Assembly (NCBI GenBank): GCA_000991405.1
Contig: LBRL01000001.1
Coordinates: 379,200-443,199, forward strand
DNA length: 64,000 bases
Direction: 5' to 3'
Source: Candidatus Nomurabacteria bacterium GW2011_GWD2_36_14
GTDB lineage: Bacteria > Patescibacteriota > Minisyncoccia > Phycocordibacterales > UBA9973
The position numbers and the translations under genes are program-made. Every line of letters starts with the position of its first letter. Position 1 is the stretch's first letter. The notes beneath the pieces were generated by a model. That model was not told the DNA's origin. It did not search any database and was given only the letters and a program-made list of their open reading frames with translations. Positions 1,833 to 54,183 of this stretch are shown here, piece after piece.

Positions 1833-3572
1833 CTATAATATCTCTCTCTTGTAACAATCATCACAGTATAAATTCCACCCATCCTTTGAATCATACGTCG
1901 TTATAATACTCTTTTCACACATATTACAAATACTACTATTCATTCTATAATCCCCCAAGTATTTATATCGATCTTTAATTCTTTTTATTTGATGAATATC
2001 AGGAAGAGGAATACTATGAATTCTATAAAATTCTAACTCCGATTCTGTAATGCGGAATGGTTTTCCTGTTTCTTTACACACAAGTGCTTTGGTAAGGATA
2101 TCATCTTCTACGTCATCAATATTGTCAGGAATATCTTCTGTTTTTACTAAATCCATACCCACTGCATTTGATTCAGTCTCTATTTGCCAAAGTCCGCCAA
2201 TTTTCTCTACTTCTTCTTTGCTCAACGGAAATACAAAATCAGAAGTTGATCCATTGTATGCATAAGTACTAAAAGGTAACGAGAAAAAATCTCCGTATTC
2301 TCCCTTTCGTAATAATGATGATTTAATTTTATCTAATTCTTTATAATATTCTTCCTTTTCATATTGACGATTAAAAATACAGTAATTCTTATTGTCTAAA
2401 CCAACACAAGCAAAACAATTATTTATATTCCTACAATTAATCAAAAGCTCTGATTCAGTAATAAACTTCGAAGCAAAGGAGAACTTCACGTTTGATGACT
2501 TGGACCCGACCGCAATGGTACTATAAAGTCTTTCAGATCCACCAGAAACTGCAGCGTCCATGGAATCATGATTTGCAATGACATTATCACAGTGTAAAAC
2601 GTGTGTTGATTTTACAGTGTCAAAAACATCATGACAATCTTTTGAATCTGAAATATTTGTTCCAGACACATTATTTACTCGCTCATGTCTCTCTGCTCTA
2701 ACTGGTTGTAATTTCACAAATTTCCAAAATTCTTCACTAATCTCTTTTATGGACTTTCTACTTTTTAAGTTTATATCTGAGATCTGTTTTCGATACTCTT
2801 CTTTGGTATATTGAACATTAAATATACAATTACTTTTATTTCTAAGATTCACACAACCAAAACAGTCAGTACAATTGTTGCAATCATACAGAAAGTTAGA
2901 GTCTATGCAGTTATCTGAGAAATATAAATATTTAGAGTTATAACATTTCTCACAAGAGACTATCTCATATGAATTCTCTCCAAAATGAACGAGTAACGAA
3001 TCCATAACATTACGAGAATCGTTCACAGTATTGCAATACCAAAGATTCTCTGAATTCCACCCTCCACTTACATAATACCCATTCTTTAAATTTCTACCAT
3101 TTATAGAATACTCACTGTTTATACTAGATGGATCTCGAATAATAGCAGGTTGAGGAACTCTCAATCTCAAATCCCAAAATTGATCTAAAAAAGTTTTTGA
3201 TTCATCATAAAAAGTTCCATAAGTATTTGAGTCAAAATTTTTAATATAACTATCTAAATCATAAACTATTAGTGGAGAAACTGGTGGTACAAAAGAAATT
3301 ATTTTACCCTCTTTTCCGGGAGCATTATTGTCTCTTTTGTATAAATTTATTGAGTTCACGAAAGCATAACGATTCATCCTCCTACATGTCGGACAATAGT
3401 TCGGTGTAGGTACCCGAAGCATTTTCAGGAATTCAATATCTTCCTTAGTTATATCAAATTCCCCTTCACAGTACTTGTGCTCTCCTTGCCACTTACATAC
3501 ACGCTTATGAGGCACCAAACTTTCAAATATCTTATCCAGAAGTGCATCAAATTGTGGGGTTTTTGTTTCCAT
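1833..3572 (-). CDS. Cysteine-rich multi-zinc-ribbon repeat protein (paralog B), function unknown
   Basis: 579 aa. Shares with 122..1798 the N-terminal F-x-I-x3-E-x2-F-[LY]-K-M-x-V-P-x-P-x2-CP-x-CR motif and the modules CNNCTDCFGCVNLRNKSNCIFNVQYTKEEY and CFACVGLDNKNYCIFNRQYEKEEY. The C-terminal ribbon is degenerate. Confidence 0.6.
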   Translation of the reverse strand: METKTPQFDALLDKIFESLVPHKRVCKWQGEHKYCEGEFDITKEDIEFLKMLRVPTPNYCPTCRRMNRYAFVNSINLYKRDNNAPGKEGKIISFVPPVSPLIVYDLDSYIKNFDSNTYGTFYDESKTFLDQFWDLRLRVPQPAIIRDPSSINSEYSINGRNLKNGYYVSGGWNSENLWYCNTVNDSRNVMDSLLVHFGENSYEIVSCEKCYNSKYLYFSDNCIDSNFLYDCNNCTDCFGCVNLRNKSNCIFNVQYTKEEYRKQISDINLKSRKSIKEISEEFWKFVKLQPVRAERHERVNNVSGTNISDSKDCHDVFDTVKSTHVLHCDNVIANHDSMDAAVSGGSERLYSTIAVGSKSSNVKFSFASKFITESELLINCRNINNCFACVGLDNKNYCIFNRQYEKEEYYKELDKIKSSLLRKGEYGDFFSLPFSTYAYNGSTSDFVFPLSKEEVEKIGGLWQIETESNAVGMDLVKTEDIPDNIDDVEDDILTKALVCKETGKPFRITESELEFYRIHSIPLPDIHQIKRIKDRYKYLGDYRMNSSICNMCEKSIITTYDSKDGWNLYCDDCYKREIL

Positions 3573-5352: not shown

Positions 5353-5775
5353 TTACTTCCTTCCAGTTGATCCAAAAGCCCCTTCCCCTCTATCTGACTC
5401 ACTCAATGTATCAGTTTCCTCCAACTCTGCAATAACCACTGGCACAATAACTAGTTGCGACACTTTGTCCCCCTCTTCTACAGTATATGGCTCACTTCCA
5501 AGATTTACAAGGTGAGTATTGTATTCACCTCTATATCCAGCATCAAACACTCCTCCCATATGTATCAACCCAGCCTTAGAAATACTAGACTTATCCATCA
5601 CAATTGCCGCATTCCCAACTGGGAACTCCATAGCAAAACCATGGAAGAATCTATAATGCTCCATGGGCTTGATGGTCACAGTCTCCATAGCATACAAGTC
5701 CATCCCCACATCCCCTGGGTGAGCATACTTGGGCAACTTGGCATTCTCTTTTAATTTTTTAATTTTAATATGCAT
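5353..5775 (-). CDS. dut: dUTP diphosphatase (dUTPase family; possibly dCTP/dUTP)
   Basis: 140 aa with dUTPase motifs: GVFDAGYRGEY (motif III) and C-terminal RGEGAFGSTGRK (motif V). Motif II is KSS instead of RSG. Confidence 0.8.
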   Translation of the reverse strand: MHIKIKKLKENAKLPKYAHPGDVGMDLYAMETVTIKPMEHYRFFHGFAMEFPVGNAAIVMDKSSISKAGLIHMGGVFDAGYRGEYNTHLVNLGSEPYTVEEGDKVSQLVIVPVVIAELEETDTLSESDRGEGAFGSTGRK

Positions 5776-6034: not shown

Positions 6035-6739
6035 TTATTTTAATACCCTCCTTACCTCTTTATAAACCATATCATGTATTTGCTCACGAGAAAGTATTTC
6101 ACCTTTCTCTGAGCAACTTATTTTACTCCAGTTCGGTTGAGTCTTCGCAAGCCAGAGTGCGCTCTTGATAGAATTCTCCATAAACTTCTCGTCAGCTTCA
6201 TGTACATCTTTGTTCTTCTTTAGATACTTTCTCTTCATCTGACTACTTTCTCTATCATTGAGAAGCTTCATTACAATCTGTATTGGTAAACTTAAATACA
6301 AAGTTAGATCAGGCTTAGGAATACCAAATTCTTCATACTCCATCTGATTGAGCCACTTTATGAAATTATTTCGCTTTCTCGTATCACTTATTTTGCCACC
6401 TTGATGAATCTGATTAGCAGAAACGTAACGATTGGCTACTACTATGTATCCTTCTTTGAGCCACTTTTCCATTTCAGTTTTTGACTGCCATCTGTCTGCG
6501 GCAAAAAGTACGGAAGCAATCTTCGGATGAACATTTATGAAGTTATAGTATTGCTCAGAAAGACAATGCCCAACAAAAGCTCCAAAGAAATTCTTGTAAT
6601 ACTCAGGAAAGTCCACAACCTTTACTTTATATCCGTCTTTTTTAAGTCTGTCAGTGAGATAATTTACTTGTGTAGCCTTTCCACTTCCATCTGTCCCGTC
6701 TATTACGATAAGCTTGCCTTTAGTTTTTTGTTTTTTCAT
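6035..6739 (-). CDS. tmk: Thymidylate (dNMP) kinase family protein
   Basis: P-loop VIDGTDGSGKATQ, a DRY-like motif NRYVSANQIHQGG (E. coli DRHDLSTQAYQGG) and the LID-adjacent PDLTLYLSL (E. coli PDLTLYLDV). It has a C-terminal extension compared with E. coli Tmk. Confidence 0.75.
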   Translation of the reverse strand: MKKQKTKGKLIVIDGTDGSGKATQVNYLTDRLKKDGYKVKVVDFPEYYKNFFGAFVGHCLSEQYYNFINVHPKIASVLFAADRWQSKTEMEKWLKEGYIVVANRYVSANQIHQGGKISDTRKRNNFIKWLNQMEYEEFGIPKPDLTLYLSLPIQIVMKLLNDRESSQMKRKYLKKNKDVHEADEKFMENSIKSALWLAKTQPNWSKISCSEKGEILSREQIHDMVYKEVRRVLK

Positions 6740-6803
6740 AAGATAACCTCAATTATACCTAAAAATTACCCTATATCAAAATCCATTAAATATATACTAA
6801 TTT

Positions 6804-6845
6804 AAAATGACACAATCTCTGCTATAGCAGAGATTGTGTCATTTT
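6804..6845. promoter_or_regulatory. Perfect 19-bp-arm palindrome (AAAATGACACAATCTCTGC-TATA-GCAGAGATTGTGTCATTTT) in the divergent tmk / PaaX-like intergenic region; candidate operator
   Basis: Read directly from the sequence. It lies between divergently transcribed genes, so it is not needed as a terminator. Confidence 0.5.
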
Positions 6846-6863
6846 AATATTTAAGTTATAATT

Positions 6864-7346
6864 ATGTATATGTCTATCGTAAGTGAAATTTTAGAAGAAC
6901 TTTGGAATACAGAACTCAACTATAAGGGAGTTAGGGTTAATCTTTTTGGTATTCCCAGATTTAGTAAATATCCACAAAGAAGTATCCGAACAACAATGGA
7001 CCGATTAAAAAAGAAAGGGATTATAGAAAAAGAGTTGGCTGGAATAGTGCTTTCTAAATACGGGAAAGAATATGTGAAAAGAAAATATGATTCACTTAAG
7101 CAATTTGAAAATCCGGGAAATCTGTCTAAGGATAGAACTTTACTTGTGATGTTTGATATACCGACAGAGAAGAAATCTCATAGAGAATGGCTACGCTGGC
7201 ATTTGAAAAGGTTTAATTATGTTATGGTTCAGAAAAGCGCATGGGTAGGACCCTACCCTCTCCCAAAGGGATTCAATGAATACTTAAAAAGAATAAAACT
7301 AGATAAATGCATAAAAACTTTTAAATTAGATAAACCTTATAAGTAA
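6864..7346 (+). CDS. PaaX-like transcriptional regulator (wHTH plus Cas2-like PaaX effector domain)
   Basis: The N-terminal QRSIRTTMDRLKKKGIIEKE resembles the PaaX wHTH recognition helix and wing (TVRTALSRLVRDGWLE). The second half, LLVMFDIPTEKKSHREWLRWHLKRFNYVMVQKSAWVGPYP, matches the PaaX core motif (sVPE..R..Rd.lR..L.w.GFG.l...vW..P.P). It also resembles the Cas2 beta1-alpha1-beta2 pattern. Confidence 0.5.
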   Translation: MYMSIVSEILEELWNTELNYKGVRVNLFGIPRFSKYPQRSIRTTMDRLKKKGIIEKELAGIVLSKYGKEYVKRKYDSLKQFENPGNLSKDRTLLVMFDIPTEKKSHREWLRWHLKRFNYVMVQKSAWVGPYPLPKGFNEYLKRIKLDKCIKTFKLDKPYK

Positions 7347-7363: not shown

Positions 7364-7417
7364 AAAACAAAATCTATACAAATTCTGCCATGGCAGAATT
7401 TGTATAGATTTTGTTTT
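7364..7417. terminator. Perfect 25-bp-arm palindrome / bidirectional intrinsic terminator between convergent genes
   Basis: AAAACAAAATCTATACAAATTCTGCC-ATGG-CAGAATTTGTATAGATTTTGTTTT is flanked by A and T runs. It lies between the PaaX-like gene (+) and a NUDIX gene (-). Confidence 0.6.
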
Positions 7418-7444: not shown

Positions 7445-7876
7445 TTATTCTTTGTCGTAAAAGTTTTTGCCAGTTTTGTATGAATCAATAATTAATTCAC
7501 TTGGATAAAAAAGAGGTGAAGGTAGATTGTCTAATGAGTACCAATTCCACTCTCCTATTTTCTCATGATCATATGTTTTTGGTTCATTCTCTTTCCAATC
7601 AGCAAAAAGTCCGATCAAAATATCTTGACGATTTTCATGTCTACAATATGTAGAAGTAGAAAGATATTTAATATTTTCAATTTTAATTCCTGATTCTTCT
7701 AATGTTTCCCTTGTAGCACAATCTACAAAAGATTCTTGAAACTCTAAGTGCCCTCCTGGCATCGAGTACTCTCCCTGACCATGACTTCCCTTTCTTTTAC
7801 CAAGAAGAATCTTGCCTTCTTTCCAGATCATTACACCTACACATGGTTTTAATTTATGTCTTTCTCCTTCTACCAT
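7445..7876 (-). CDS. NUDIX hydrolase
   Basis: Nudix box GGHLEFQESFVDCATRETLEESGI (GX5EX7REUXEEXGU). Confidence 0.8.
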   Translation of the reverse strand: MVEGERHKLKPCVGVMIWKEGKILLGKRKGSHGQGEYSMPGGHLEFQESFVDCATRETLEESGIKIENIKYLSTSTYCRHENRQDILIGLFADWKENEPKTYDHEKIGEWNWYSLDNLPSPLFYPSELIIDSYKTGKNFYDKE

Positions 7877-7878: not shown

Positions 7879-8205
7879 TTAATTATGTGTCTCGTTCATT
7901 TTGTTAAAATCCCAATTTCTTTCTTTGTTTGATTCAATTTTTTTAAGAACTTCCTTTTCAATATCAATACCAAAAATTCCAGCTAAATGTAAAATTCTTT
8001 GTATTGCATCACCAAGCTCTTCTTTGAAACCATCCTTGCCATCAATATTTTTATGCCTATATGCCTCATAAGCCTCAGAGACTTCTGAGTGTATTAAGGC
8101 AATTTTTTCTCCAACATTTATTTCTTCTGGTTTTGTCCCAAAACCTTTTTCTTTAGCTTGTTCTAGTATTAATGAAGTTAGCTCTCTTAAATTTAAATTT
8201 TCCAT
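7879..8205 (-). CDS. MazG-like all-alpha NTP pyrophosphohydrolase (DCTPP1-like)
   Basis: 108 aa. EVSEAYEA...EELGDAIQRILHLAGIFGIDIEKEVLKKIESNKER matches the MazG/HisE-type EExxE/D metal-binding helices. Confidence 0.6.
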   Translation of the reverse strand: MENLNLRELTSLILEQAKEKGFGTKPEEINVGEKIALIHSEVSEAYEAYRHKNIDGKDGFKEELGDAIQRILHLAGIFGIDIEKEVLKKIESNKERNWDFNKMNETHN

Positions 8206-8207: not shown

Positions 8208-8687
8208 TTATTTTTCTCCTAATTCTTTTAATGCTTCTAGCGCATAAAATTTTACATTTGGAATAATTTCAATTTTATTTAAATCATCTGATGTCATCCA
8301 TTTCATCTCAACCCCTTTCTCATGTTCTAAGATTGATTCAGAAATTAAATCTGTCTTTGATTTTGCAAAATAAACAAAAACAACGTGTTCATGTTTATCG
8401 TTAACTGGATGTCTACCTAAGTATCTAGGTGGAATCAAATATTTATAATTCCTATTTTTATCATCCCCATTTAATGGACCATTTGATTCACCAATTATCT
8501 CTATATCAAGACCAACTTCTTCTTTTACTTCACGGATTGCTGCTTCAATTGGGTCCTCATCTAATTCAATATGACCACCAACAGAAAGCCAAAAACCAAG
8601 CTTATCATGAATACGTAAAAGAACCTTGTTTTTATACACAATAAAAACTTCTACGCAAAAATCAATTTTTTCATTAATATGGGGCAT
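8208..8687 (-). CDS. NUDIX hydrolase
   Basis: Nudix box GGHIELDEDPIEAAIREVKEEVGL. Confidence 0.8.
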   Translation of the reverse strand: MPHINEKIDFCVEVFIVYKNKVLLRIHDKLGFWLSVGGHIELDEDPIEAAIREVKEEVGLDIEIIGESNGPLNGDDKNRNYKYLIPPRYLGRHPVNDKHEHVVFVYFAKSKTDLISESILEHEKGVEMKWMTSDDLNKIEIIPNVKFYALEALKELGEK

Positions 8688-8690: not shown

Positions 8691-9866
8691 TTATTTCCCT
8701 CTCAACACCTTATCCATCCTGACTGCAAGTTTGACCATGTCGGACTCTTTCTTGCCACGGGTAGTTTCGGCACAAGTGCCTAGGCGGATACCGGAAGGAT
8801 CCATAGGAGAGCGAGGGTCGCCAGGGATTGTGTTCATATTCACTATAATTCCTGCCTTTTCTAGCTTGTCACTTGCAATCTTGCCAGGAACTCCCTTCCC
8901 TTCCATCCATGTGTCCATAAGGATAAGGTGTGAGTCTGTACCGCCAGAGATAATATGCCAACCGAGCTTTTGTAATTCTTTAGCAAGAACTTTCGCGTTC
9001 TTCACGACTTGCTTGGCATACTTCTTGAATTCGGGCTTTGAAGCTTCTAGGAATGCTACAGCCGCAGCAGCGATACTGTTCTCGTGTGGGCCACCATAGA
9101 GTCCTGGGATTATCATCTTGTCTATTTTCTTATCGAATTCTCTTTCATCTTTCTTTACAAAGATTATCGCGTGTCTTGGACCACGAAGAGACTTGTGAGT
9201 TGTCGTCATGACAGAGTCTGCATATGGAAATGGAGATGGATATGCTCCACCAGCTACAAGACCTGCGAAGTGCGACATGTCAACATGAAGAAGTGCCCCT
9301 GATGCGTCGGCTATATCTCTAAACTTTTTGAAGTCTACAATTCTAGGATATGCAGTAAATCCACAGACTATAATGTCTGGCTTCTCTGCTATTGCAATTT
9401 TCTTCAATGCTTCATAGTCTATGACTTCTGTCTTCTTATCAAGTTCGTATTGTAAAGGTTTCCAAATCTTTCCTGTCATTGATGCTGGATGTCCGTGTGT
9501 AAGGTGCCCGCCTGAGGAAAGCTTCATTCCCATTATTTTCCCTCCAACTGGAACAAGTGCTGAGTAAAGTGCAAAGTTTGCTGGAGATCCTGAAAGAGGT
9601 TGGACATTTACATGCCACTCTGTAGGCTTAAGTTTGAAAAGCTTCAAAGCACGAGCAATTGCTAAATTCTCTACTTTATCTACCACCTGATTACCACCAT
9701 AGTATCTTCTTCCTGGATAACCTTCGGCGTACTTATTTGTAAGTTTGGAACCAAGAGCCTTCAATACATCGTCGGAAACAATGTTCTCTGAAGCTATTAA
9801 ATTCACGACACTCTTCTGACGCTTTTCCTCTTCCTTAATTAGTTTCTCTATTTGTTTATCTTTCAT
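8691..9866 (-). CDS. glyA: Serine hydroxymethyltransferase
   Basis: SHMT motifs: the PLP-lysine region TTTHKSLRGPRHA and N-terminal ASENIVSDDV...KYAEGYPGRRYYGG. Confidence 0.9.
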   Translation of the reverse strand: MKDKQIEKLIKEEEKRQKSVVNLIASENIVSDDVLKALGSKLTNKYAEGYPGRRYYGGNQVVDKVENLAIARALKLFKLKPTEWHVNVQPLSGSPANFALYSALVPVGGKIMGMKLSSGGHLTHGHPASMTGKIWKPLQYELDKKTEVIDYEALKKIAIAEKPDIIVCGFTAYPRIVDFKKFRDIADASGALLHVDMSHFAGLVAGGAYPSPFPYADSVMTTTHKSLRGPRHAIIFVKKDEREFDKKIDKMIIPGLYGGPHENSIAAAAVAFLEASKPEFKKYAKQVVKNAKVLAKELQKLGWHIISGGTDSHLILMDTWMEGKGVPGKIASDKLEKAGIIVNMNTIPGDPRSPMDPSGIRLGTCAETTRGKKESDMVKLAVRMDKVLRGK

Positions 9867-9923
9867 AATATGGTGATAAATTAGATTTGTAATAAGCTAA
9901 TTTTAGCACAATAAATAAAAACT

Positions 9924-9952
9924 AAAAAGCGAGCCAAAATGGCTCGCTTTTT
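9924..9952 (-). terminator. Intrinsic terminator hairpin downstream of the deaminase-like gene
   Basis: AAAAAGCGAGCC-AAAAT-GGCTCGCTTTTT. It is followed by a U-run on either strand. Confidence 0.55.
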
Positions 9953-9955
9953 ATC

Positions 9956-10492
9956 TTAATCAAACTTATGTTTTGTAATGTTATTTGGATCTTTCTCGTT
10001 AAAGAGAACTTCACTTCCTTCCATTACATAGACATTACGAATTGGAACTTCAATCATTTTACCCCAACAGTCTTTGCATGCCCACCAATGACCCCACAGA
10101 TACAAATCAAATTGATCGCTCTTGTCAAAACCCTGCTTAATCAATTTCTTAGAAGCTCTGTATTCAGCATGATGATCCCCAGCTGCACATCCGGGACATA
10201 ACCAATATTTCTTACCAGATGGAATTCCTAGAATTCTTCTGATACAATATTTTTTATGAAGATTAATTAAACCTTCACTTGTTAATGGTGCTTTATTTGC
10301 ATCTTTAGAAACAACAACGCTATCTCGACCCCGAACTATTACTGCCCCAGTAGAAGACCGCTTGTCTGTTGATTCCTTACGAGCAACTTCTTTGGCTTCT
10401 TGCATAAACTTATTATCTTTAGGCACATACAATATAGTTCGTCCTTCGGGTAAATAAGGATAGACTATCTCTTTTTTTATATTTGTTTCCAT
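9956..10492 (-). CDS. dCMP/cytidine deaminase-fold zinc enzyme (dCMP deaminase-like)
   Basis: The STGAVIVRGRDSVVV segment resembles the vGAVIV core strand of CDA-fold dCMP deaminases. HAE followed 28 aa later by ACKDC matches the H[AC]E...PCxxC zinc motif. There is an extra CPGC just before HAE, possibly a second zinc site as in T4 dCMP deaminase. Confidence 0.55.
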   Translation of the reverse strand: METNIKKEIVYPYLPEGRTILYVPKDNKFMQEAKEVARKESTDKRSSTGAVIVRGRDSVVVSKDANKAPLTSEGLINLHKKYCIRRILGIPSGKKYWLCPGCAAGDHHAEYRASKKLIKQGFDKSDQFDLYLWGHWWACKDCWGKMIEVPIRNVYVMEGSEVLFNEKDPNNITKHKFD

Positions 10493-10500: not shown

Positions 10501-11370
10501 TTGTATTATATAATAGGAATTATGACAACATTTGACACAATATATAAAAATTTAATAAAGCGAATAATGGAGGAAGGTATTGAAGAATTAAACGAAAGAA
10601 CAGGTCACAAAATAAAGATATTACCCGGCTTAACTTTCCAGACTGACATCGAGAAAGATGGGTTCCCTGTATTAACATTGCGAAAGAATCCTATTAAGTC
10701 TCCCATAGCTGAACAAGTTTGGTTTATTACTGGAGACAAAGATACAGAATTTTTAAGAAAATATACAAAAATGTGGGATGAATTTATTGAAGAAGATGGC
10801 ACTATAACTTCTGCATATGGTTATAGATGGCGTCATCATTTCGGAAGAGATCAACTAGACCAGCTAGTAAAACATTTGACCGAAGAACCTCACTCACGGC
10901 AAGGAGTTATTGTTACTTGGGATCCTGCTGATGATGGGTTATATGGAAAAGGATTAAAAGCAACTTATAAGAAAAATGCACCTTGCCCCTTTGCTTTCAC
11001 TATTAACATAATTGGAGGAAGACTTCATCTTCATAACATAGTTCGCTCAAACGACATGATGCTTGGCTGTCCTTTTGATACATTTGGTTTTAGTCTTATG
11101 ATGTGTGCCCTTGCTCAAAAGCTTGGAGTAAAGCCAGGAATATATACCCATACAATTTCGAATGCGCATATATATGACAATCATTACGAAGGAGCAAGAG
11201 AGCTTATAAAAAGAGAAAATGATCACCCTAATATATATCCCGTATTCCCTGCTGATATTTATGACCGAGCAGAGAGAAAAGATGAGACACTAGTTGATGA
11301 AATTTATCAATCTTTTAAACCATTTTTTAATCCAAGTGAACCGATAGAGGGATTAGATATAGTAAAATAA
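10501..11370 (+). CDS. Thymidylate synthase (ThyA) family enzyme carrying an Asp at the nucleotide-specificity position; predicted dCMP methyltransferase/hydroxymethylase or divergent TS
   Basis: The stretch RSNDMMLGCPFDTFGFSLMMCALAQ...SNAHIYDNH aligns gaplessly with E. coli ThyA [25 protein letters not shown]...GDTHLYSNH. The catalytic Cys sits in PCP (canonical PCH). E. coli N177 is replaced by D (PFDTFG), and D205 is replaced by N. Confidence 0.8.
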   Translation: MYYIIGIMTTFDTIYKNLIKRIMEEGIEELNERTGHKIKILPGLTFQTDIEKDGFPVLTLRKNPIKSPIAEQVWFITGDKDTEFLRKYTKMWDEFIEEDGTITSAYGYRWRHHFGRDQLDQLVKHLTEEPHSRQGVIVTWDPADDGLYGKGLKATYKKNAPCPFAFTINIIGGRLHLHNIVRSNDMMLGCPFDTFGFSLMMCALAQKLGVKPGIYTHTISNAHIYDNHYEGARELIKRENDHPNIYPVFPADIYDRAERKDETLVDEIYQSFKPFFNPSEPIEGLDIVK

Positions 11371-11373: not shown

Positions 11374-11898
11374 ATGATTCTATCAATAATCTCAGCCATA
11401 GCAAATAATAATGAAATTGGAAGGAAGAATGAACTTCTATGTGATTTGCCTATCGATATGAAGCACTTCAGAGGAACAACTTCTGGACACCCAGTAATAA
11501 TGGGGCAAAGAACCTTTGAATCTCTCGGAACATCTCCAGATGGTAGTCTTGGTCGCCCTCTTCCAAATAGAAGAAACATAATACTTACTCTTGATAAAAA
11601 TTTCAAAAGAGAAGGAATAGAAATATATAATTCTATCGAAGATCTAGAAAAATCTTTAACTGAAACCATGGGGAAAGATGAGGAAGCATTTATCATAGGT
11701 GGAGGACAGATATATAAACTCTTCATAGACAAAGCAGATAGGTTATATATCACCCACGTAAATGCAGACTTCCCGGATGCTGATACTTTCTTCCCTGTTA
11801 TAGATAAAGATAAATGGAAAATTGTCTCCGAAGATAAACACGAGAAAGATGAACAAAATATATACGATTGTAATTTTGTAATATACGAAAGAAAATAA
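11374..11898 (+). CDS. folA: Dihydrofolate reductase
   Basis: The N-terminus MILSIISAIANNNEIGRKNELLCDLPIDMKHFRGTTSGHPVIMGQRTFESLG is typical of DHFR. It follows the ThyA-like gene in a classic operon arrangement. Confidence 0.85.
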   Translation: MILSIISAIANNNEIGRKNELLCDLPIDMKHFRGTTSGHPVIMGQRTFESLGTSPDGSLGRPLPNRRNIILTLDKNFKREGIEIYNSIEDLEKSLTETMGKDEEAFIIGGGQIYKLFIDKADRLYITHVNADFPDADTFFPVIDKDKWKIVSEDKHEKDEQNIYDCNFVIYERK

Positions 11899-11901
11899 AA
11901 T

Positions 11902-11938
11902 AAAAATCTCCGCTAGGTTTTGCCTAGCGGAGATTTTT
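11902..11938. terminator. REP-like hairpin / bidirectional terminator (AAAAATCTCCGCTAGG-TTTTG-CCTAGCGGAGATTTTT)
   Basis: Perfect 16-bp stem between convergent folA (+) and a MazG-like gene (-). It belongs to a hairpin family that recurs at 25705 and 27539. Confidence 0.6.
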
Positions 11939-11945
11939 ATTTTAT

Positions 11946-12275
11946 TTATGGATCTATATCTGTCTTAACTCTAATAAAGACATCTTCACCATCTGGTGAC
12001 TTTGTCTTTATATATTTACGGTTTTTATTTATTTCTATTTTCCTTACTAATTCTTTTTCTAAATCATAACCAAGTATTTCACACATACCAAGAAGAAAAA
12101 CTGCAACATCTGCAAATTCTTCTGCTACTCCGTCTTGATTTTTATTAAACTTAGAAAATGCCTCAGAAAGTTCCTCGTATGCTCGACAAAACTCCAATGC
12201 TACATCTGTAGTATTGAAACCCTTCTCAAGCTTATTCCTCATTACTTCCTTTTGTAATTCTTTTAAATCTACCAT
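11946..12275 (-). CDS. MazG-like all-alpha NTP pyrophosphohydrolase (second paralog)
   Basis: 109 aa. ELSEAFSKF...EEFADVAVFLLGMCEILGYDLEKELVRKIEINKNRKY parallels the 7879..8205 product. Confidence 0.6.
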   Translation of the reverse strand: MVDLKELQKEVMRNKLEKGFNTTDVALEFCRAYEELSEAFSKFNKNQDGVAEEFADVAVFLLGMCEILGYDLEKELVRKIEINKNRKYIKTKSPDGEDVFIRVKTDIDP

Positions 12276-19237: not shown

Positions 19238-19780
19238 CTACTTTAACTTTTGGTGCAAAAGAACAAGTGCTCTCTGATGATAACTCTTCACAGTATTTAG
19301 AGGTTTATCCATTACTTCCCCTATCTCTTTGAAAGTCATGTCCTCTTGATAACGAAGTATTAGGACTTCTCTGTATTGGACTGGAGTTTCATCTAATACT
19401 TTTATTAGCATTTCTTTATCTTGTAATTTTTGATACACCTCATCTGGTAAAATTTCCTCATCTAAAACATTCTCTTCTATTAATTCTTCATCATTCAAAA
19501 AAGAAAAAGGAATAGATTTCTTCTTGCGTAAATAATCCGTAATAGAATTGCGAGCAATTGTAAAAATCCAAGTTTTAAACTGAGATTTATTTTCATCAAA
19601 ATTTTTCAAATTCTTCCAAACTTTTATAAAAACTTCTTGAGTCGTATCTTTGGCTTGCTCATAACCAACAAACCTAGATGAAAAATTGTAAATGGAAGAA
19701 GTATATCTGTCTATAAGCATTTTTAAAGAAGCTTGATTTCCATCAAGATATTTTTTTATTAAAATATGATCTCCTTCCAT
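19238..19780 (-). CDS. RNA polymerase sigma-70 family ECF sigma factor
   Basis: Region 2 (VFIKVWKNLKNFDENKSQFKTWIFTIARNSITDYLRKKK) and region 4 HTH (YREVLILRYQEDMTFKEIGEVMDKPLNTVKSYHQRALVLL). Confidence 0.8.
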   Translation of the reverse strand: MEGDHILIKKYLDGNQASLKMLIDRYTSSIYNFSSRFVGYEQAKDTTQEVFIKVWKNLKNFDENKSQFKTWIFTIARNSITDYLRKKKSIPFSFLNDEELIEENVLDEEILPDEVYQKLQDKEMLIKVLDETPVQYREVLILRYQEDMTFKEIGEVMDKPLNTVKSYHQRALVLLHQKLK

Positions 19781-21364: not shown

Positions 21365-22504
21365 TTATTTATGATATTTACCCACTGCTTCACTTACACT
21401 CTTGTATCCATCCTTTCGTAAAAGCTTCGCTAGGTCTCTATTGATCTTGCCTATGACACTTGGACCTTCGTATATCATGCCGGTGATCATTTGCACAAGA
21501 CTTGCTCCTCTTTTGATCTTCTCATAAGCATCTTTACCTGTGAAGATTCCTCCGCATCCTATAATTATAAATCTATCTTTGTATTTCTTGTAAACTTCAC
21601 TTATCAGATTATTGGAAAATTCTTCGGTAGGTTTACCGCTAAAGTTCCCCTTCCCTGCATTCTTTATTTCCGTCTGATCAAAGCAAGCATTTTCTCGATT
21701 CTTGACCAAGTTGGACATTATGACTCCTGATATCCACTTGTATTTATCTGCCACAGCAAGCAGTGCTAAAGTCTCTGCCACGCTTTTCTCGGCGTGCATT
21801 TTTATAAACAAAGGTTTGTTGATATTCAAGTATGAAAGCTTATTTAGAAGAATTGCGAATCCGACAGGATCATCGAACTTCTCTTTCAAGTTCTCAACAT
21901 TTATAAGATTCGGGCAACTTATATTGAGTTCATAATAATCAAAATAATTCACCTTCAAAGCAAGCTCAAAGGAAAGGTAGACGTCATCGGCCATATCCTC
22001 TATCTTTTTATAAGCTCTATTGGTCGCACCAATACTGAGTCCTAGGGGTATAGTACCCGCCTCTTCGGACTGATGCCGCCCTCGAGGCGACTCCTTAATT
22101 TTCTTTAATACAGCCTCCATGCCCATACTTTTGAAACCTTTGTTTACAAGCAAAGACTTGGACTTGGGAAGTCGTCCGAGCATAGGTCTTGGATTGCCGG
22201 CATAAGGTAAGTGGGTTACAGTCCCAATAGTATGAAAACCGAAACCAACAGAAGGAAGTACTTCTATCAGATCAGCATCGTAGTCAAAGCCAGCCGAAAG
22301 ACCGACCGGATTGGTGAAATTAATACCAGCAACTTTTGTATTTAATACAGAATCTTTGTAAGGCAAAATCTTACTAAGTAAATTTTTAGTAAAATTTATA
22401 CTACCTAAAAGCCTTCCTCTCTTTAAGAAAAAGGTATGAACATCATCCGCAGGGAATTTGAAAAGTATGGGTTTAATAATTTTCTTATAGATAAATCCAA
22501 TCAT
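21365..22504 (-). CDS. pyrD: Dihydroorotate dehydrogenase (quinone)-like, PyrD class 2 family
   Basis: N-terminal membrane-association helix region plus the C-terminal FMN-binding motif IIGCGGIFTGKDAYEKIKRGASLVQMITGMIYEGP. Confidence 0.65.
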   Translation of the reverse strand: MIGFIYKKIIKPILFKFPADDVHTFFLKRGRLLGSINFTKNLLSKILPYKDSVLNTKVAGINFTNPVGLSAGFDYDADLIEVLPSVGFGFHTIGTVTHLPYAGNPRPMLGRLPKSKSLLVNKGFKSMGMEAVLKKIKESPRGRHQSEEAGTIPLGLSIGATNRAYKKIEDMADDVYLSFELALKVNYFDYYELNISCPNLINVENLKEKFDDPVGFAILLNKLSYLNINKPLFIKMHAEKSVAETLALLAVADKYKWISGVIMSNLVKNRENACFDQTEIKNAGKGNFSGKPTEEFSNNLISEVYKKYKDRFIIIGCGGIFTGKDAYEKIKRGASLVQMITGMIYEGPSVIGKINRDLAKLLRKDGYKSVSEAVGKYHK

Positions 22505-22554
22505 ATACTACTCAGTATAACATTTTATTTGAAAATTATAGATATTGACGAATT

Positions 22555-22592
22555 AGTAATTCTAAATTCTTAATTCTTAATTCTTAATTTCT
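22555..22592. repeat. Short tandem heptamer repeat (T/A)AATTCT x5 at the zwf 3' end / pyrD upstream region
   Basis: TAATTCTAAATTCTTAATTCTTAATTCTTAATTTCTT read directly from the sequence. Confidence 0.5.
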
Positions 22593-23911
22593 TCTACAGT
22601 ACTACCTTTCTTATAAATTATTAAATCATAAGTACTAGTTGACCAAGCCTTCTGTAGTCCGTCTAATATACGCCAAGTTTCTATAACTTCTTCACTCGTT
22701 GAGAAGAGACTATGGTCACCATTGATAGCATTGAAAAGCACTTGCTCATAAGCTTCTGGAAGTGCAGTATAGTGATCCTTGAAAGAGAAATTTAGTGCAT
22801 GACGACTGACTTGATGCTCATACCCCGGACGCTTGGCCCAGACAGAGAAAGATATCCCCTCGTCTGGCTGAAGTCTCAAAAGTAATTCGTTGGATTCGCG
22901 ATCATTATCTTTTCTATAAAGAATTTTTATTTCTGTAAATTTGTCTTTCAGAGCTTTCCCTGTGGTAAGATTAATCTTGACTCCTTGCCACTTTGGATCA
23001 CTAGAGACTAAGTCTATCGAGGCAAAAGTCTCTACCATACTGTGCGGATTCTGTACTTCTTCTCGGTAGCCATGATATTGACCACGCTTTACATGAGCTG
23101 ACAATGAAGGAACGGATGGAATACTAATCTGCCTCAAAGCTTCATAACGTAAGTTGGGGACTTCTTCGATGTGCCCTTCCTCTGGAATATCCATGAGGGT
23201 CAAGGCTAGAAGCTGAAGTAAGTGACTTTGAATTAAGTCTCGAAGTGCCCCAGTCTGCTCGTAAAAGTTTGCTCGGCCTTCTATTCCGATTTCTTCGCTG
23301 ACAACAATTTCAATCTTGTCAATAAAATCTTTGTTCCAAGTTTTCTTGAAAAGAGAATTCCCTTCACGGAAAACTATAATATTCTGGGCTGTTTCCTTGG
23401 CCAAGTAGTGGTCAATACGATAGATCTGCTCTCTCTTGAAATATTTATCGATATGCTCTACTAACTCCGTCGCACTTTCTAAATTAATACCAAAAGGCTT
23501 CTCAAGCAAAAGCTTGGTATTGTCCTTCTCGGCAAAACCTTCTTTCCCCAAGAATTCAATAATCGACTTGGAAGTGTTTGGGGGAACTGAAAGATAAAAT
23601 AAATACTGAGCAGAAGTTCCAAACTCTCTTTCGATTTCTTCTAAACGAATTCTTAACTTTCGATAATCTTCCTCTCTCAGAAGATTCATTTCAAACATTT
23701 CCGTACTCTTCAGGAGATAATCCTTGTTGACTGTATGTTTTAACAAATTTTCTAAATTAATATCTGACTGACGAGTAACACCAATAATTCGAAAATTTGA
23801 AGGAATCATGCCAGTCATGGCAATCTGCCCGATAGCCGGAAGAAGCTTCCTCTTCGATAAATCGCCAGAGATTCCGATAATAATTAAAATTGTTGGTTGA
23901 TCATTTTTCAT
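22577..23911 (-). CDS. zwf: Glucose-6-phosphate 1-dehydrogenase
   Basis: G6PD active-site region RIDHYLAKE, the dinucleotide-binding N-terminus GISGDLSKRKLLPA, and EKPFG. Confidence 0.9.
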   Translation of the reverse strand: MKNDQPTILIIIGISGDLSKRKLLPAIGQIAMTGMIPSNFRIIGVTRQSDINLENLLKHTVNKDYLLKSTEMFEMNLLREEDYRKLRIRLEEIEREFGTSAQYLFYLSVPPNTSKSIIEFLGKEGFAEKDNTKLLLEKPFGINLESATELVEHIDKYFKREQIYRIDHYLAKETAQNIIVFREGNSLFKKTWNKDFIDKIEIVVSEEIGIEGRANFYEQTGALRDLIQSHLLQLLALTLMDIPEEGHIEEVPNLRYEALRQISIPSVPSLSAHVKRGQYHGYREEVQNPHSMVETFASIDLVSSDPKWQGVKINLTTGKALKDKFTEIKILYRKDNDRESNELLLRLQPDEGISFSVWAKRPGYEHQVSRHALNFSFKDHYTALPEAYEQVLFNAINGDHSLFSTSEEVIETWRILDGLQKAWSTSTYDLIIYKKGSTVEEIKN

Positions 23912-23916
23912 TACTT

Positions 23917-24822
23917 TTATTTCTCATTTATTTTGTGTCCTCCGAAAGCATTCCTCATAGATGCGACCAACTTCGTCGCATAGTTTACAAGTCCCTTTTG
24001 AGAGTCCAGTCGAACATCAAAGGAAGACTGTATGGCCCGAGTCTCAATGTTGAATTCTTTAGCTACTTCGAGAGCCCAACGTGCCTCACCTGACTCTGTG
24101 ACCTTGCCTTCTACTCCATCTTGGTTTGGATTTACTTTCATTATATCTCTTGTAAGTTCATTGAGCCATGAAGTGATAACGCTATGATGTTGCCAGACCT
24201 CACCTGCCTTGTACAAGTCTATATCTTTATATGGACCTTCCTTAAGTATATGATACCCTTCGGCCAAGCTTTGCATCATGCCGTATTCGATAGCATTGTG
24301 AACCATCTTCACATAGTGCCCCGATCCACTTTCTCCGAAGTGGGCATACATACCTTCGGGATTCTTCAATGTTTCAAGTATGGGCTTTATAATTTCAAAG
24401 GAAGCGCTATCTCCACCTACCATCATTGAGAAGCCGTTCTGATAGCCCCAGACGCCGCCCGACGTGCCTATGTCGATAAGTGTTGATCCCTGAGCCAAGA
24501 CTGCTTCAGCTCTTCTCTTCGTATCACTCCATTTAGAATTCCCACCGTCAATCAGAATACTGCCGACAGGTACTAGCCTGAGCCATGTGTCTAGCTCAGC
24601 ATCGACTGTATCGGATGGTATCATGAGCCAGACGATAACTTGATCAGTTCCAAAAGAAGATACAACTTCCTCTTTCGTATAAGCACCGATCATACCCAAA
24701 CTTTTCATTTCATCTACTGCACCACTGCTCCTGTTGGAAGCTATGACCGTATGCCCGCCCTCGTGCAACTTGCGAGCTATCTGTGAACCCATTTTGCCTA
24801 AACCAACGATTGCTATTCTCAT
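23917..24822 (-). CDS. gnd: 6-phosphogluconate dehydrogenase (decarboxylating), short Gnd/YqeC-like form
   Basis: N-terminal Rossmann MRIAIVGLGKMGSQIARKL and the 6PGDH C-terminal helical domain. About 300 aa, typical of the short form. Confidence 0.8.
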   Translation of the reverse strand: MRIAIVGLGKMGSQIARKLHEGGHTVIASNRSSGAVDEMKSLGMIGAYTKEEVVSSFGTDQVIVWLMIPSDTVDAELDTWLRLVPVGSILIDGGNSKWSDTKRRAEAVLAQGSTLIDIGTSGGVWGYQNGFSMMVGGDSASFEIIKPILETLKNPEGMYAHFGESGSGHYVKMVHNAIEYGMMQSLAEGYHILKEGPYKDIDLYKAGEVWQHHSVITSWLNELTRDIMKVNPNQDGVEGKVTESGEARWALEVAKEFNIETRAIQSSFDVRLDSQKGLVNYATKLVASMRNAFGGHKINEK

Positions 24823-24927
24823 CCGCCTAAATTTTTTACTAAATTAACGTTTATCATTAATGATATATTAATAAAGAAAAAAGAAATTAAATTTATAATA
24901 ATTAATATTTTAAAAATTTTGGTGGAT

Positions 24928-25593
24928 TCATTCCACTTTATAATCTGTAAAAATTGTAAATAATGGAACACTCTTCAGTATTTGTGCTGGCTCTTCGTCG
25001 ATAGATACGTCAGTCGCCAGCTTCTCTATTGCTGGCCATTTATTCTCTCCTACTGCGTAGAGTACTGCTTCATCGAGCATCTTGATAGTCTTCCCTGTTA
25101 TGGTCATACGATCATGTAAGTCCGTCTCGTATGTGCACACCAACTCTTCGCTCTTTACCGCTTCTGTATGAGGTAGGATACCTGCAGTATGACCGTCTAT
25201 ACCTATCCCGAAAATTCCAATTTTATATTCTGCATTTTTCAATTCCTCTGATAAAGCTTCTCTTATATCTTCTGTCGTTTCCTTCATGTCCTTTCCAGAG
25301 AGGAATGGTATTATCTTGGCTTTCAGTATCCTAAATCCAGAATTTGTAAGCTTGAACCAATTGGATTCAGGATGTCCAAGATGACCAAATCTTTCATCAC
25401 ATAGTGTTACAACTAACGTCCCTGATAAGCTTATATCTATCTTGTCAGCAATTTTCACTTCTACGGGAATAGCCGAGCCACCAGAAACAAACCAGAGAAC
25501 CTTCTTCCCTTGTTTTAGCTTTTCGTTTATAGATGAGGATACAAACTCCACTACCTCTTCTATGTCTTTAATTGTTTTAATATTTAAATTCAT
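24928..25593 (-). CDS. pgl: 6-phosphogluconolactonase (glucosamine-6-P isomerase/Pgl family)
   Basis: LWFVSGGSAIPV motif. It sits in an operon with zwf and gnd. Confidence 0.7.
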   Translation of the reverse strand: MNLNIKTIKDIEEVVEFVSSSINEKLKQGKKVLWFVSGGSAIPVEVKIADKIDISLSGTLVVTLCDERFGHLGHPESNWFKLTNSGFRILKAKIIPFLSGKDMKETTEDIREALSEELKNAEYKIGIFGIGIDGHTAGILPHTEAVKSEELVCTYETDLHDRMTITGKTIKMLDEAVLYAVGENKWPAIEKLATDVSIDEEPAQILKSVPLFTIFTDYKVE

Positions 25594-28854: not shown

Positions 28855-29433
28855 CTATACACTGACTCCTATTAATTTTTCATATTCATATTTAAAAAGC
28901 TTTTTACCTCTTAATATCAAGTTCCCTACTGTACTTACTGGTTTCTTTAGAATATCGGATATCTCCACATAATCCTTCTCGTCTAGGAATCGCAAGACCA
29001 ATACTTCCCTATACTTTTCGTCTAAATTTGAAAGAGCTATATCTATCGCTTTCCTATCTATAGAATTATCTACATCTTTAACCATATCAAAAACATCTCC
29101 AAATTTCTCCAAGTCTCCCTCTTCTAGATAGAGAGTTGGTCTAGCAACTTTCTTTCTTATAGCACTTACTGCTTCATTGTGAGCTATGCGATATATCCAA
29201 GAAGAAAATTTAAGACTAGGATCAAAACCATTCAAATTGTAATAAGTTTTAATAAAGACCTCCTGAAGAACATCTTCGGAGTCTTCTCGACTAAATTTTG
29301 AAATATGTGTGATGTACCGCAATAACTTTTCTTCATATCTTTTCGATAAGCAAAAAAAGTAATCAGAATCTTTCAGGGACAATCCGACTAGTTCTTCATC
29401 TGTTTTACTTTCACAAGATCGCGTATCTATCAT
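28855..29433 (-). CDS. ECF-type sigma-70 family sigma factor
   Basis: Region 2 (VFIKTYYNLNGFDPSLKFSSWIYRIAHNEAVSAIRKK) and region 4 (YREVLVLRFLDEKDYVEISDILKKPVSTVGNLILRGKK). Confidence 0.75.
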   Translation of the reverse strand: MIDTRSCESKTDEELVGLSLKDSDYFFCLSKRYEEKLLRYITHISKFSREDSEDVLQEVFIKTYYNLNGFDPSLKFSSWIYRIAHNEAVSAIRKKVARPTLYLEEGDLEKFGDVFDMVKDVDNSIDRKAIDIALSNLDEKYREVLVLRFLDEKDYVEISDILKKPVSTVGNLILRGKKLFKYEYEKLIGVSV

Positions 29434-31382: not shown

Positions 31383-32384
31383 TTAATCTCTTTTATTCTT
31401 TCGTTCCTCTTTATGCTTTATACCATTCTTGAAAAGAATATTGGCTTCTTTGATAGAACTCTCAGAGTCTAGAAGCGAAGAGTAAGCTTCCTTCCAATCA
31501 CCCTCTTTATCTTTCATGGTCGAATCCTCTAGATATTCCCTGGCCTTATCTATAGTTTTATGAGTATCATCCTCTGTGGATATTTCTATCTTATTTTCAT
31601 TTTGATTAGTATATTTGACCTTCTCGTCTGTGTTCTCAATCAGGGACTTGACCTCTTCTTTTTTAGAATTATATTTTACTATATTTTCTTTGTTTATTTT
31701 ATTTGATATTTTCTTTATCTTTTCTGCATTTACCTTGGCTGTATTTGAAATTTTATTGTCTTCCTTCTCTACTTCATTATCATTACTCTTTTTCTGCTTC
31801 TGTTTCTCCTTAATAACTGCTAGAACCTTGGCATGAGCATTCATCTCTGCACGGAAGCTAGTACTTATATCTTCTATAGTTTCTGTTGCATTAGTATCAT
31901 CAACTTTTTCTAAAGCTTTATTCAAGGATATAGTATGCAGAGTCAGAAGATTATTTATCTTTTCTTCATTGGAAGAATTTAATTTACCAGCTTTTGCCAA
32001 AGTTTCGGCTTCAATCAAGCGCTTAGTAGCAAGGCCACTTTCATGTTTGGCTTTTGCTGTATTTGAAAAAGCTAAAGCTCCTTCCATAGGTTCTAGAACC
32101 TTCACCTTGATAGGATAAAGTATATTGTCTGGCAAGCTATCCTGCGAAGCAAAGACCACTCCCCCACTAGAAAGTATAATGATAAGCGGTATAACTATGT
32201 AGTATACCAACCTATTGCTTTGAAGCATTGCTACAAAAGAGAAAGTTACCCAAGGGCTTTTAATAGGTTTTGAATTACTAGTAGAAGCTTTCAAGATATT
32301 GTCAAAGACGCGCGCTTTCTCACTGTCGGTCATGACAATACTTCTAATCTCATTTATTCCATTTTTTAATTTATTATTTTCCAT
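31383..32384 (-). CDS. Anti-sigma factor-like membrane protein with a DUF5667-like extracytoplasmic domain and a K/E-rich tail
   Basis: N-terminal cytoplasmic segment, a TM, an LYPIKVKVLEP...KRLIEAE domain, and a lysine-rich low-complexity tail. Directly downstream of an ECF sigma gene. Confidence 0.4.
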   Translation of the reverse strand: MENNKLKNGINEIRSIVMTDSEKARVFDNILKASTSNSKPIKSPWVTFSFVAMLQSNRLVYYIVIPLIIILSSGGVVFASQDSLPDNILYPIKVKVLEPMEGALAFSNTAKAKHESGLATKRLIEAETLAKAGKLNSSNEEKINNLLTLHTISLNKALEKVDDTNATETIEDISTSFRAEMNAHAKVLAVIKEKQKQKKSNDNEVEKEDNKISNTAKVNAEKIKKISNKINKENIVKYNSKKEEVKSLIENTDEKVKYTNQNENKIEISTEDDTHKTIDKAREYLEDSTMKDKEGDWKEAYSSLLDSESSIKEANILFKNGIKHKEERKNKRD

Positions 32385-53808: not shown

Positions 53809-53838
53809 AACAATCCGAGTACAGCTTAAAAAAATGGG

Positions 53839-54146: not shown

Positions 54147-54183
54147 ATACTATAATCTTTGATCAAATAAAATATAAAGTCAA

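Follow-up and report, generated by a model that had tools for sequence, protein, structure and literature searches.

A ThyA-family enzyme of Candidatus Nomurabacteria, predicted to methylate deoxycytidylate

We analysed 64,000 nucleotides from the genome of Candidatus Nomurabacteria bacterium GW2011_GWD2_36_14, a tiny groundwater bacterium (contig LBRL01000001.1, positions 379,200 to 443,199; the whole stretch is called the window, and positions are counted within it), with emphasis on a gene of the thymidylate synthase (TS) family at 10522-11370 (+). Its product of 282 amino acids is a ThyA-fold enzyme for which we predict, from its Pfam match, its residues and its homology to a protein of phage Xp12, the activity of a deoxycytidylate 5-methyltransferase of the Xp12 type. 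A dihydrofolate reductase (DHFR) gene of the same operon (11374-11898, +; PF00186, 183 bits) starts 3 nt after the TS stop codon and is convergent with a gene for a MazG-like all-alpha nucleoside triphosphate (NTP) pyrophosphohydrolase (11946-12275, -; PF12643, 25 bits, below the cut-off); a bidirectional terminator-like hairpin with a 20-bp stem (11898-11942, assigned to neither strand) ends both the TS-DHFR operon and the MazG-like gene. Divergent from the TS gene lies a gene for a protein of the cytidine/deoxycytidine monophosphate (dCMP) deaminase fold (9956-10492, -; a weak match of 32.8 bits to PF00383), a predicted deaminase of 5-methyldeoxycytidine (5-methyl-dC or 5mdC) nucleotides, with a terminator-like hairpin on its 3' side (9923-9953, -). 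Beyond it, 650 bp upstream of TS, is a serine hydroxymethyltransferase (SHMT) gene (8691-9866, -; PF00464, 511 bits), whose product would regenerate methylene-tetrahydrofolate (methylene-THF).

The open reading frame at 10501-11370 (+) was confirmed, with a Pfam match of 186 bits to PF00303 (Thymidylat_synt), but its TTG codon at 10501, which the initial annotation had taken as the start, is most likely not the true one. We prefer the ATG at 10522, because all 120 close homologs are 277-282 amino acids long and begin with MTTFD, because AGGA (10515-10518) stands ahead of this ATG, and because a start at TTG 10501 would sit only 8 bp from the start codon of the divergent deaminase gene. The AlphaFold2 model (pLDDT 88.6) is superposed by Foldseek on solved thymidylate synthases over the full length (TM 0.74-0.84), and the protein is labelled thymidylate synthase in every database or source that gives it a name. 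Among the curated family models, TIGR03284 is passed, barely (118.4 vs a cut-off of 108.35), and the protein falls below the cut-offs of TIGR03283 and of all six matched PRK-type NCBIfam TS equivalog models, in five of the six by far (e.g. 150.6 vs 327).

Active-site residues were mapped by aligning the query with five solved thymidylate synthases in HMMER; MAFFT, with E. coli ThyA included, gave the same result (query residues are numbered in the 282-residue protein from ATG 10522, and family positions as in E. coli). The query segment RSNDMMLGCPFD aligns on RSADxFLGVPFN, which places Asp186 (codon GAT, 11077-11079, +) at Asn177, the pyrimidine-specificity position, whose Asn in thymidylate synthases forms hydrogen bonds with N3-H and O4 of uracil. 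The query aPCPfaf aligns on pPCHxxF, so that Pro156 (CCC, 10987-10989, +) replaces His147 next to the retained catalytic Cys155 (Cys146; TGC, 10984-10986, +), and tiSNAHIY aligns on tlGDAHIY, with Asn214 (AAT, 11161-11163, +) at Asp205. Further substitutions are Asn152 for Leu143 (AAT, 10975-10977, +), which opens the motif N-A-P-C-P (Asn152, Cys155 and Pro156; 10975-10989, +), Phe88 for Trp83 and Gln127 for Arg127. In canonical enzymes His147, Leu143 and Trp83 surround the pyrimidine and the pterin. The rest of the catalytic apparatus is kept, namely Glu64 (Glu58), Tyr99 (Tyr94), Arg26, Arg126 and Arg175 (Arg21, Arg126 and Arg166), Asp178 (Asp169), His216 (His207) and Tyr218 (Tyr209). The initial annotation had already reported the Asp, the PCP in place of PCH with its Cys intact and the Asn at position 205, while allowing for a shifted alignment that hid a conserved Asn at 177; all three changes are borne out, and the solved-structure and MAFFT alignments still give Asp.

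These changes are shared by nearly all relatives. Among the 120 closest homologs (67-91% identity to the query), the sequence ...PFD, with Asp177, is found in all 117 in which a motif search located the site, the other three being unmatched by the pattern; PCP is present in 118 and Asn at position 205 in 119. We also collected 80 species-level Patescibacteria genomes (Nomurabacteria, Uhrbacteria, Kaiserbacteria and other Paceibacterota; 55-92% identity). Asp177 occurs in 79 of these 80 GTDB species representatives, the remaining one being unmatched by the motif search, and KKN[VAIL]PCP in 75, the Xp12 counterpart being KNVPCP. Being conserved across homologs and species genomes, the substitutions are ancient and selected rather than noise, and the conservation of the Asp, the Pro and the Asn in nearly all relatives rules out a sequencing error or a chance substitution.

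With phmmer, the query matched 148 of 1.84 billion representative proteins below 1e-30. Every protein covering the site among ranks 1-98 (297 to 139 bits) has Asp177, with Pro147 in most and Phe83 in nearly all of them, and the first protein with Asn177, His147 and Leu143 appears at rank 99. At position 143, Asn is found in 113 of about 128 Asp177 representatives and Asp or Glu in none, while all 17 Asn177 representatives have Leu143 and His147. In a neighbour-joining tree (200 bootstraps), 121 of 123 Asp177 sequences, including the query and the enzymes of phages Xp12 and PaMx74, form one clade with no Asn177 member. Alignment and tree, which the initial annotation had proposed as checks, agree in placing the query with the Xp12 dCMP methylase and apart from the Asn177 enzymes. 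Of 50,697 phage records, 4373 contain a TS homolog, and the query is matched best by those of Xp12, PaMx74, PaMx28, AAT-1, ZQG1, Mallos and the Achromobacter JWX group. The identity of the query is 35% with the Xp12 enzyme over the full length (E 5e-62), 27% with E. coli ThyA and 21% with T4 gp42.

The Xp12 enzyme (QNN97214.1) and its PaMx74-like relatives share with the query the ThyA fold, Asp177, Pro147, Asn143 and Phe83, and Xp12 further shares the motifs AYGYRWR.HFGRDQL and WDPA.DGL...KN.PCP. All cytosine in Xp12 DNA is replaced by 5-methylcytosine (5mC), and its ThyA homolog is a proven dCMP methylase, used as positive control for 5mdC production in a study in which five of seven metagenomic Asp177 homologs made 5mdC in vivo (bioRxiv 10.1101/2024.12.05.627091). 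Positions 177 and 147 are the two that discriminate best between phage TS homologs from cytosine-modified contigs and all others (PMC8670742). According to work cited in PMC8670742 and PMC13326640, Asn177 to Asp is the classic switch of TS preference from deoxyuridine monophosphate (dUMP) to dCMP, the engineered E. coli N177D and L. casei N229D enzymes preferring dCMP and yielding 5-methyl-dCMP. Unlike in these mutants, the Asp of the query is natural and ancient, and it is accompanied by co-varying changes at 143, 147, 83 and 127.

A different reading is that the protein is a genuine dUMP-dependent TS, or a dual dUMP/dCMP methylase, which tolerates Asp177 and receives its dUMP from the deaminase and a dUTPase in the textbook order. 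The name given to it in all databases and the narrow success with TIGR03284 would fit such an enzyme, as would its resemblance to canonical ThyA (EC 2.1.1.45), with which it shares the fold, the catalytic Cys, Glu58, Tyr94, the phosphate-binding Arg, the C-terminal tail, the coupling to DHFR and, in all, every catalytic residue except those at 143, 147, 177 and 83. It departs from canonical ThyA, however, precisely in the specificity residue and three neighbouring active-site residues and in its failure at most of the curated equivalog cut-offs. The change at 177 is the dUMP-to-dCMP switch of the work cited above, and the correlated His147Pro, Leu143Asn and Trp83Phe are common to a proven dCMP methylase. 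We consider a dUMP-dependent enzyme unlikely, if well worth weighing, and return to it with the gene context.

The initial annotation had predicted a cytosine-directed methyl- or hydroxymethyltransferase. Homology, signature residues and gene context support the methylase; the hydroxymethylase did not hold up. Two features mark the dCMP hydroxymethylases: an acidic residue (Asp or Glu) at the third position ahead of the catalytic Cys, by which the substrate water is activated, and a missing C-terminal tail, the segment that closes over the folate (PMC6400193; PMC13326640). The T4 D145N mutant makes no 5-hydroxymethyl-dCMP (PMC6400193). The query has Asn152 at the place of the acidic residue (KKNAPCP), as does the Xp12 methylase (KNVPCP), and possesses the tail, which aligns with the C-terminus of E. 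coli ThyA. The 5-hydroxy-dCMP synthases (RB69 gp48 / DLP3 gp80 type) are marked by D169N together with L143E (PMC13326640), both absent from the query, which has Asp178 and Asn152. A T4-type hydroxymethylase, a 5-hydroxy-dCMP synthase and a MilA-type enzyme were each ruled out on such signature residues. As the DHFR gene starts 3 nt after the TS stop codon, and as DHFR is needed only where dihydrofolate (DHF) is released, the reaction would be a reductive, DHF-releasing methylation; the initial annotation had argued likewise from the downstream DHFR.

It is true that T4 gp42 has Asp at position 177, as the initial annotation stated and as our alignment confirms, that a cytosine substrate is expected for both proteins, and that both have a Ser two residues before the catalytic-base Tyr (S97-A-Y99 in the query, S94-N-Y96 in T4). 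The S-A-Y motif is also found in Xp12, however, which is a methylase, and unlike the query gp42 has the acidic residue, lacks the tail and is not coupled to DHFR; an enzyme that releases THF would have no use for a translationally coupled DHFR, following the logic of PMC6400193. With an identity to gp42 of no more than 21%, the query appears very unlikely to be a gp42-like hydroxymethylase, or to place any other non-methyl group on C5 and so make 5-hydroxymethyl- or 5-hydroxy-dCMP.

The initial annotation did not mention that the linked deaminase probably converts the methylated product into thymidylate. This protein has invariant residues H108-A-E110, C139 and C142, which form the H-A-E and C-x-x-C catalytic zinc motifs, and four further invariant residues (H79, C83, C99 and C102) that resemble a second metal site. 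With its AlphaFold2 model (pLDDT 85), Foldseek gave as best matches the T4 dCMP deaminase (1VQ2) and the PBCV-1 dCMP/dCTP deaminase (7FH4; dCTP, deoxycytidine triphosphate), with E about 5e-4 and TM about 0.45. A sequence search of the PDB found no match, and TIGR02571 (ComEB) scored 15.9 against a cut-off of 219; the protein is not of the standard ComEB/DCTD type, which speaks against an ordinary supply of dUMP to an ordinary TS. The homologs listed with a source name all belong to Patescibacteria. There is no detectable similarity to the Xp12 deaminase (BLASTP E 0.76), and a hidden Markov model of the family reached PaMx74 only, with E 0.006; for want of a sequence link, the likeness to Xp12 and PaMx74 is one of function and position and not close homology. 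In a study of phages, the deaminases found in cis with an Asp177 TS were 5mC-selective; one of them, mSCD-B5, acts on 5mdCTP and not on monophosphates, its authors propose that deoxythymidine triphosphate (dTTP) is made from 5mdCTP, and its closest known structural homolog is named as the PBCV-1 deaminase (bioRxiv 10.1101/2024.12.05.627091). The window pair resembles those phage pairs in having a deaminase-fold gene in cis with an Asp177 TS, where the proposed role is to make deoxythymidine (dT) nucleotides from 5-methyl-dC nucleotides, and differs from them in its cellular setting and in its deaminase subfamily.

The association of the two genes is strong. In the 80 species-level genomes, the deaminase family adjoins TS in 72 (three of the eight exceptions fall at the end of a contig), DHFR in 59 and a MazG-like gene of the 11946-12275 type in 48, and SHMT is found within 10 kb in 22. 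The pairing of TS and deaminase persists across a change of orientation, from divergent (DEAM-/TS+) to co-directional (TS+/DEAM+). Starting from the deaminase, 78 of 80 metagenome loci have a TS within 5 kb, the other two loci being incomplete, and wherever the TS site is readable it is Asp177 (70 of 70 loci). That this deaminase is found only beside Asp177 enzymes is a further point against a dUMP-dependent TS. In the phage study, the co-localisation of deaminase and TS amounted to 70% on modified and 6% on unmodified contigs (bioRxiv 10.1101/2024.12.05.627091). The Xp12 and PaMx74 operons run in the order all-alpha NTP pyrophosphatase of the PRA-PH type (directly upstream of TS), TS, dCMP-deaminase-fold protein and DHFR. 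Natural fusions within the Asp177 clade join the same functions, one protein being dCMP-deaminase + TS(Asp177) (P0134, 433 aa) and another PRA-PH NTP pyrophosphatase + TS(Asp177) (P0192, 424 aa). An HNH + TS fusion was also found (P0149).

Four IMG/VR contigs bear the deaminase family of the window, and two of them, with RecE-like exonuclease, ParB-like nuclease, DNA polymerase exonuclease and endolysin genes as neighbours, carry the run Dut-deaminase-TS(Asp177), that is, a dUTPase, the deaminase and an Asp177 TS (L093, 5516-7725; L094, 2367-7219). The L094 TS shares 59% identity with the query, and 68% with the TS of other Paceibacterota. Since phage-like contigs carry a related TS-deaminase pair, phages and these bacteria appear to exchange genes of the module. 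A further arrangement of it occurs at L010 6950-10153, a run of a dNMP/deoxynucleoside-kinase-like gene, TS, a 286-residue deaminase of the divergent family seen in the window and a nucleoside 2-deoxyribosyltransferase-like gene; its TS is the distant Asp177 protein P0125 (41% identity), and the contig also encodes a protein of 2228 residues.

The host of the window module is a cell and not a phage, the window being a piece of a Patescibacteria (candidate phyla radiation) genome. It encodes arginyl-tRNA synthetase, NAD-dependent DNA ligase (LigA), GatA, CTP synthase, glucose-6-phosphate dehydrogenase (G6PD), a release factor and six tRNAs. Exactly the same TS, deaminase, DHFR and MazG-like proteins are on record for Candidatus Nomurabacteria bacterium GW2011_GWE2_36_115 and RIFOXYC2_FULL_36_8, the longest contig bearing them having 800,830 bp. 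In a relative at 75% identity, the module stands between the S12-S7-EF-G-EF-Tu-S10 cluster and L11-NusG-SecE. Flanked there by ribosomal protein operons, TS is a core chromosomal housekeeping gene rather than part of a mobile island, and the housekeeping flanks in the window together with this ribosomal-operon position rule out a prophage or viral island.

On the strength of the homology, the signature residues and the gene context, we favour, with moderate confidence, the reading of the gene at 10522-11370 as an Xp12-type deoxycytidylate 5-methyltransferase instead of a dUMP-dependent TS; its product, 5-methyl-dCMP, would then be deaminated to deoxythymidine monophosphate (dTMP). The probable route to thymidine nucleotides in these cells would begin with the methylation of cytosine nucleotides and end with their deamination, and the module may be the cells' main source of dTMP. 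In the scheme that we propose, the MazG-like pyrophosphatase (11946-12275) would probably yield dCMP from dCTP, or else remove 5-methyl-dCTP. The catalytic Cys155 would attack C6 of dCMP, and Asp186 would accept and donate protons in a way that suits the N3 and N4 of cytosine rather than the N3-H and O4 of uracil. Methylene-THF would give both the carbon and the hydride, leaving 5-methyl-dCMP and DHF, as the residues, the clade and the DHFR coupling suggest, and the folate would be recycled by the co-transcribed DHFR (11374-11898) and the nearby SHMT. The deaminase (9956-10492), judging from its linkage, would turn the 5-methyl-dC nucleotide into the dT nucleotide, acting either on the monophosphate or, as phage mSCD-B5 does, on the triphosphate, and thymidylate kinase (Tmk) would carry dTMP onward. 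The net chemistry would be that of the textbook route from dCMP through dUMP to dTMP with the two steps swapped, methylation coming first and deamination second.

Several points weigh against this scheme. The rule that Asp177 means cytosine derives from engineered mutants and phage enzymes, and two of the seven Asp177 homologs screened yielded no 5mdC (bioRxiv 10.1101/2024.12.05.627091). The bootstrap value of the Asp177 clade is moderate (56%), and the inner branches of the neighbour-joining tree are unsupported, for which reason the tree does not tell whether transfer went from phages to Patescibacteria or the other way. As the window deaminase shows no similarity to that of Xp12, its substrate can only be inferred. 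The set of deaminase, TS, DHFR, SHMT, NTP pyrophosphatase and Tmk would equally serve the textbook route, and it is only the active-site residues and the clade membership that indicate the reversed order. A near-canonical dUTPase gene lies in the same island (and near TS in 21 of the 80 genomes), and the dUMP that it makes would have no explained fate if TS refuses it. Finally, a second TS (ThyX or an Asn177 ThyA) or a thymidine kinase may be encoded elsewhere in the genome, as our scans covered the 64-kb window and about 2 Mb of flanks. Within that range, a Pfam scan of the window open reading frames of at least 110 aa lying neither within nor antisense to larger called genes found no TS domain beyond the one described; the ThyX motif RHRxxxxxxxS gave one, chance-like match in the window and 80 flanks; and phmmer found no second TS across the flanks (about 2 Mb) with the window TS as query, nor in the 80 metagenome loci with E. 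coli ThyA; the window itself likewise gave no further match to either protein.

Much of this is also what a dUMP-dependent TS would lead one to expect, as the cell needs dTMP, DHFR, SHMT, Tmk and a canonical-looking dUTPase are encoded close by, and the gene context fits either order of methylation and deamination. The residues at 177, 147, 143 and 83 and the clade membership are what incline us towards the dCMP methylase.

If the enzyme does methylate dCMP, one might speculate that its product is, as in Xp12, phosphorylated and incorporated, so that 5mC stands for much or all of the cytosine in the bacterial DNA, with the deaminase diverting only part of the pool to thymidine and the MazG-like enzyme removing dCTP. 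The window shares its four-function module with Xp12 and PaMx74, whose DNA is fully 5mC-substituted; the island also has one or two MazG-like NTP pyrophosphatases and Nudix enzymes; and the TS-deaminase pair occurs on phage-like contigs as well, among them L094 with the TS described above. However, nothing in the sequence reports a base modification, we identified no dedicated 5mdCMP kinase, and a thymidylate route explains the module equally well. The specificity of the MazG-like proteins is not indicated either, and that of the 11946-12275 type is not beside TS in 32 of the 80 genomes. Moreover, we know of no cellular organism in which cytosine is replaced wholesale by 5mC. We regard this outcome as improbable. 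Similarly, we would give little credence for now to the broadest form of our proposal, namely that the Paceibacteria/Parcubacteria (Nomurabacteria, Uhrbacteria, Kaiserbacteria) have no dUMP-dependent TS at all and use Xp12 chemistry as housekeeping, and, in its extreme version, that 5-methyl-dCTP is also incorporated, with 5mC replacing C genome-wide; wholesale use of a non-canonical base would then be seen for the first time in a cellular organism.

The textbook routes to thymidylate in cells are those of ThyA and ThyX, both of which methylate dUMP, and to our knowledge the only earlier descriptions of a dCMP methylase acting ahead of a deaminase concern phages whose C is replaced by 5mC. The kind of enzyme is already known from Xp12, from the N177D and N229D mutants and from the MetaGPA rule; what appears to be new is a cellular housekeeping version of the phage pathway. 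In the literature we found no report of an Asp177 ThyA, or of a thymidylate route through dCMP methylation, in Patescibacteria or in any cellular lineage. The query shares with Xp12 its operon partners (DHFR, a deaminase-fold enzyme and an all-alpha NTP pyrophosphatase), but it lies on a bacterial chromosome among housekeeping genes, its deaminase is of a different and very divergent subfamily, and its pyrophosphatase is a small MazG-like protein and not a PRA-PH domain fused to a C-terminal domain. It also has Asn rather than His at position 205 and Gln rather than Arg at position 127, and the outcome would probably be a supply of dTMP and not 5mC-substituted DNA. Should the proposal be true, a large bacterial radiation makes its thymidine nucleotides via 5-methyl-dC nucleotides, the annotation "thymidylate synthase" misnames the enzyme of at least 80 species-level genomes, along with hundreds of related public proteins, and metabolic models of these ultra-small bacteria need changing. 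The possible entry of 5-methyl-dCTP into their DNA would then become a question, gene exchange between them and their phages would be indicated, and the 5mC-directed deaminases and methylases, a class in present use for methylome sequencing, would gain new members.

The remaining genes of the nucleotide island lie on the reverse strand, on the far side of SHMT. They comprise a peripheral Nudix hydrolase (8208-8687, -; PF00293, 53.7 bits; weak NudB/NudG-type NCBIfam matches below their cut-offs), a second, peripheral MazG-like NTP pyrophosphohydrolase (7879-8205, -; near TS in 1 of the 80 genomes), another peripheral Nudix hydrolase (7445-7876, -; PF00293, 70.5 bits), thymidylate kinase (6035-6739, -; PF02223, 72.6 bits; near TS in 16 of the 80) and the trimeric dUTPase mentioned above (5353-5775, -; PF00692, 94 bits, and 90 bits to solved dUTPases). 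The dUTPase has Lys for the conserved Arg of motif II (mdKSSis vs vrpRSGla) and canonical sequences in its other motifs. A T4 gp56-like dCTPase was considered for this gene and ruled out, gp56 belonging to dUTPase_2 and the window protein being a near-canonical trimeric dUTPase. The MazG-like protein at 11946-12275, which matches the MazG-like structures 1VMG, 4QGP and 7ODY weakly, is a possible dCTP (or 5-methyl-dCTP) pyrophosphatase; comparison of both MazG-like proteins with solved structures gave weak generic MazG matches that indicate no specificity. With four separate Nudix genes (7445-7876, 8208-8687, 36752-37189 and 39747-40334) and two MazG-like pyrophosphatases, the window shows a heavy investment in nucleotide-pool hydrolases. 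A lone Cas2-like / PaaX_M domain protein of 160 aa (6864-7346, +) is encoded between the thymidylate kinase and Nudix genes, on the strand opposite to its neighbours. Near-perfect palindromes with 20-bp stems at 6802-6847, 7368-7413 and 11898-11942, between convergent or adjacent genes, resemble bidirectional terminators, and a terminator scan of this 8-kb stretch gave 16 sites vs 4.3 expected.

Elsewhere in the window, two adjacent large open reading frames (122-1798 and 1833-3572, -; 558 and 579 aa) had no Pfam match. At 21365-25593, genes of the oxidative pentose-phosphate pathway (G6PD, 6-phosphogluconate dehydrogenase and 6-phosphogluconolactonase) are clustered after one for dihydroorotate dehydrogenase. 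Three genes for sigma factors of the extracytoplasmic function (ECF) type lie within 14 kb, an unusually high number for a genome below 1 Mb, with two DUF5667 proteins, possibly their anti-sigma partners, encoded nearby (19238-19780, 28855-29433, 32374-32925, 31383-32384 and 35283-36383 for the five genes together). Lastly, the region 53835-55931, between two tRNA-Thr genes, encodes a DpnI-family restriction endonuclease (54184-54951, -), dependent on N6-methyladenine (m6A), and a Bro-N protein (54955-55917, -); with a local G+C of 0.32 vs about 0.38-0.40, it resembles a small island inserted at a tRNA.

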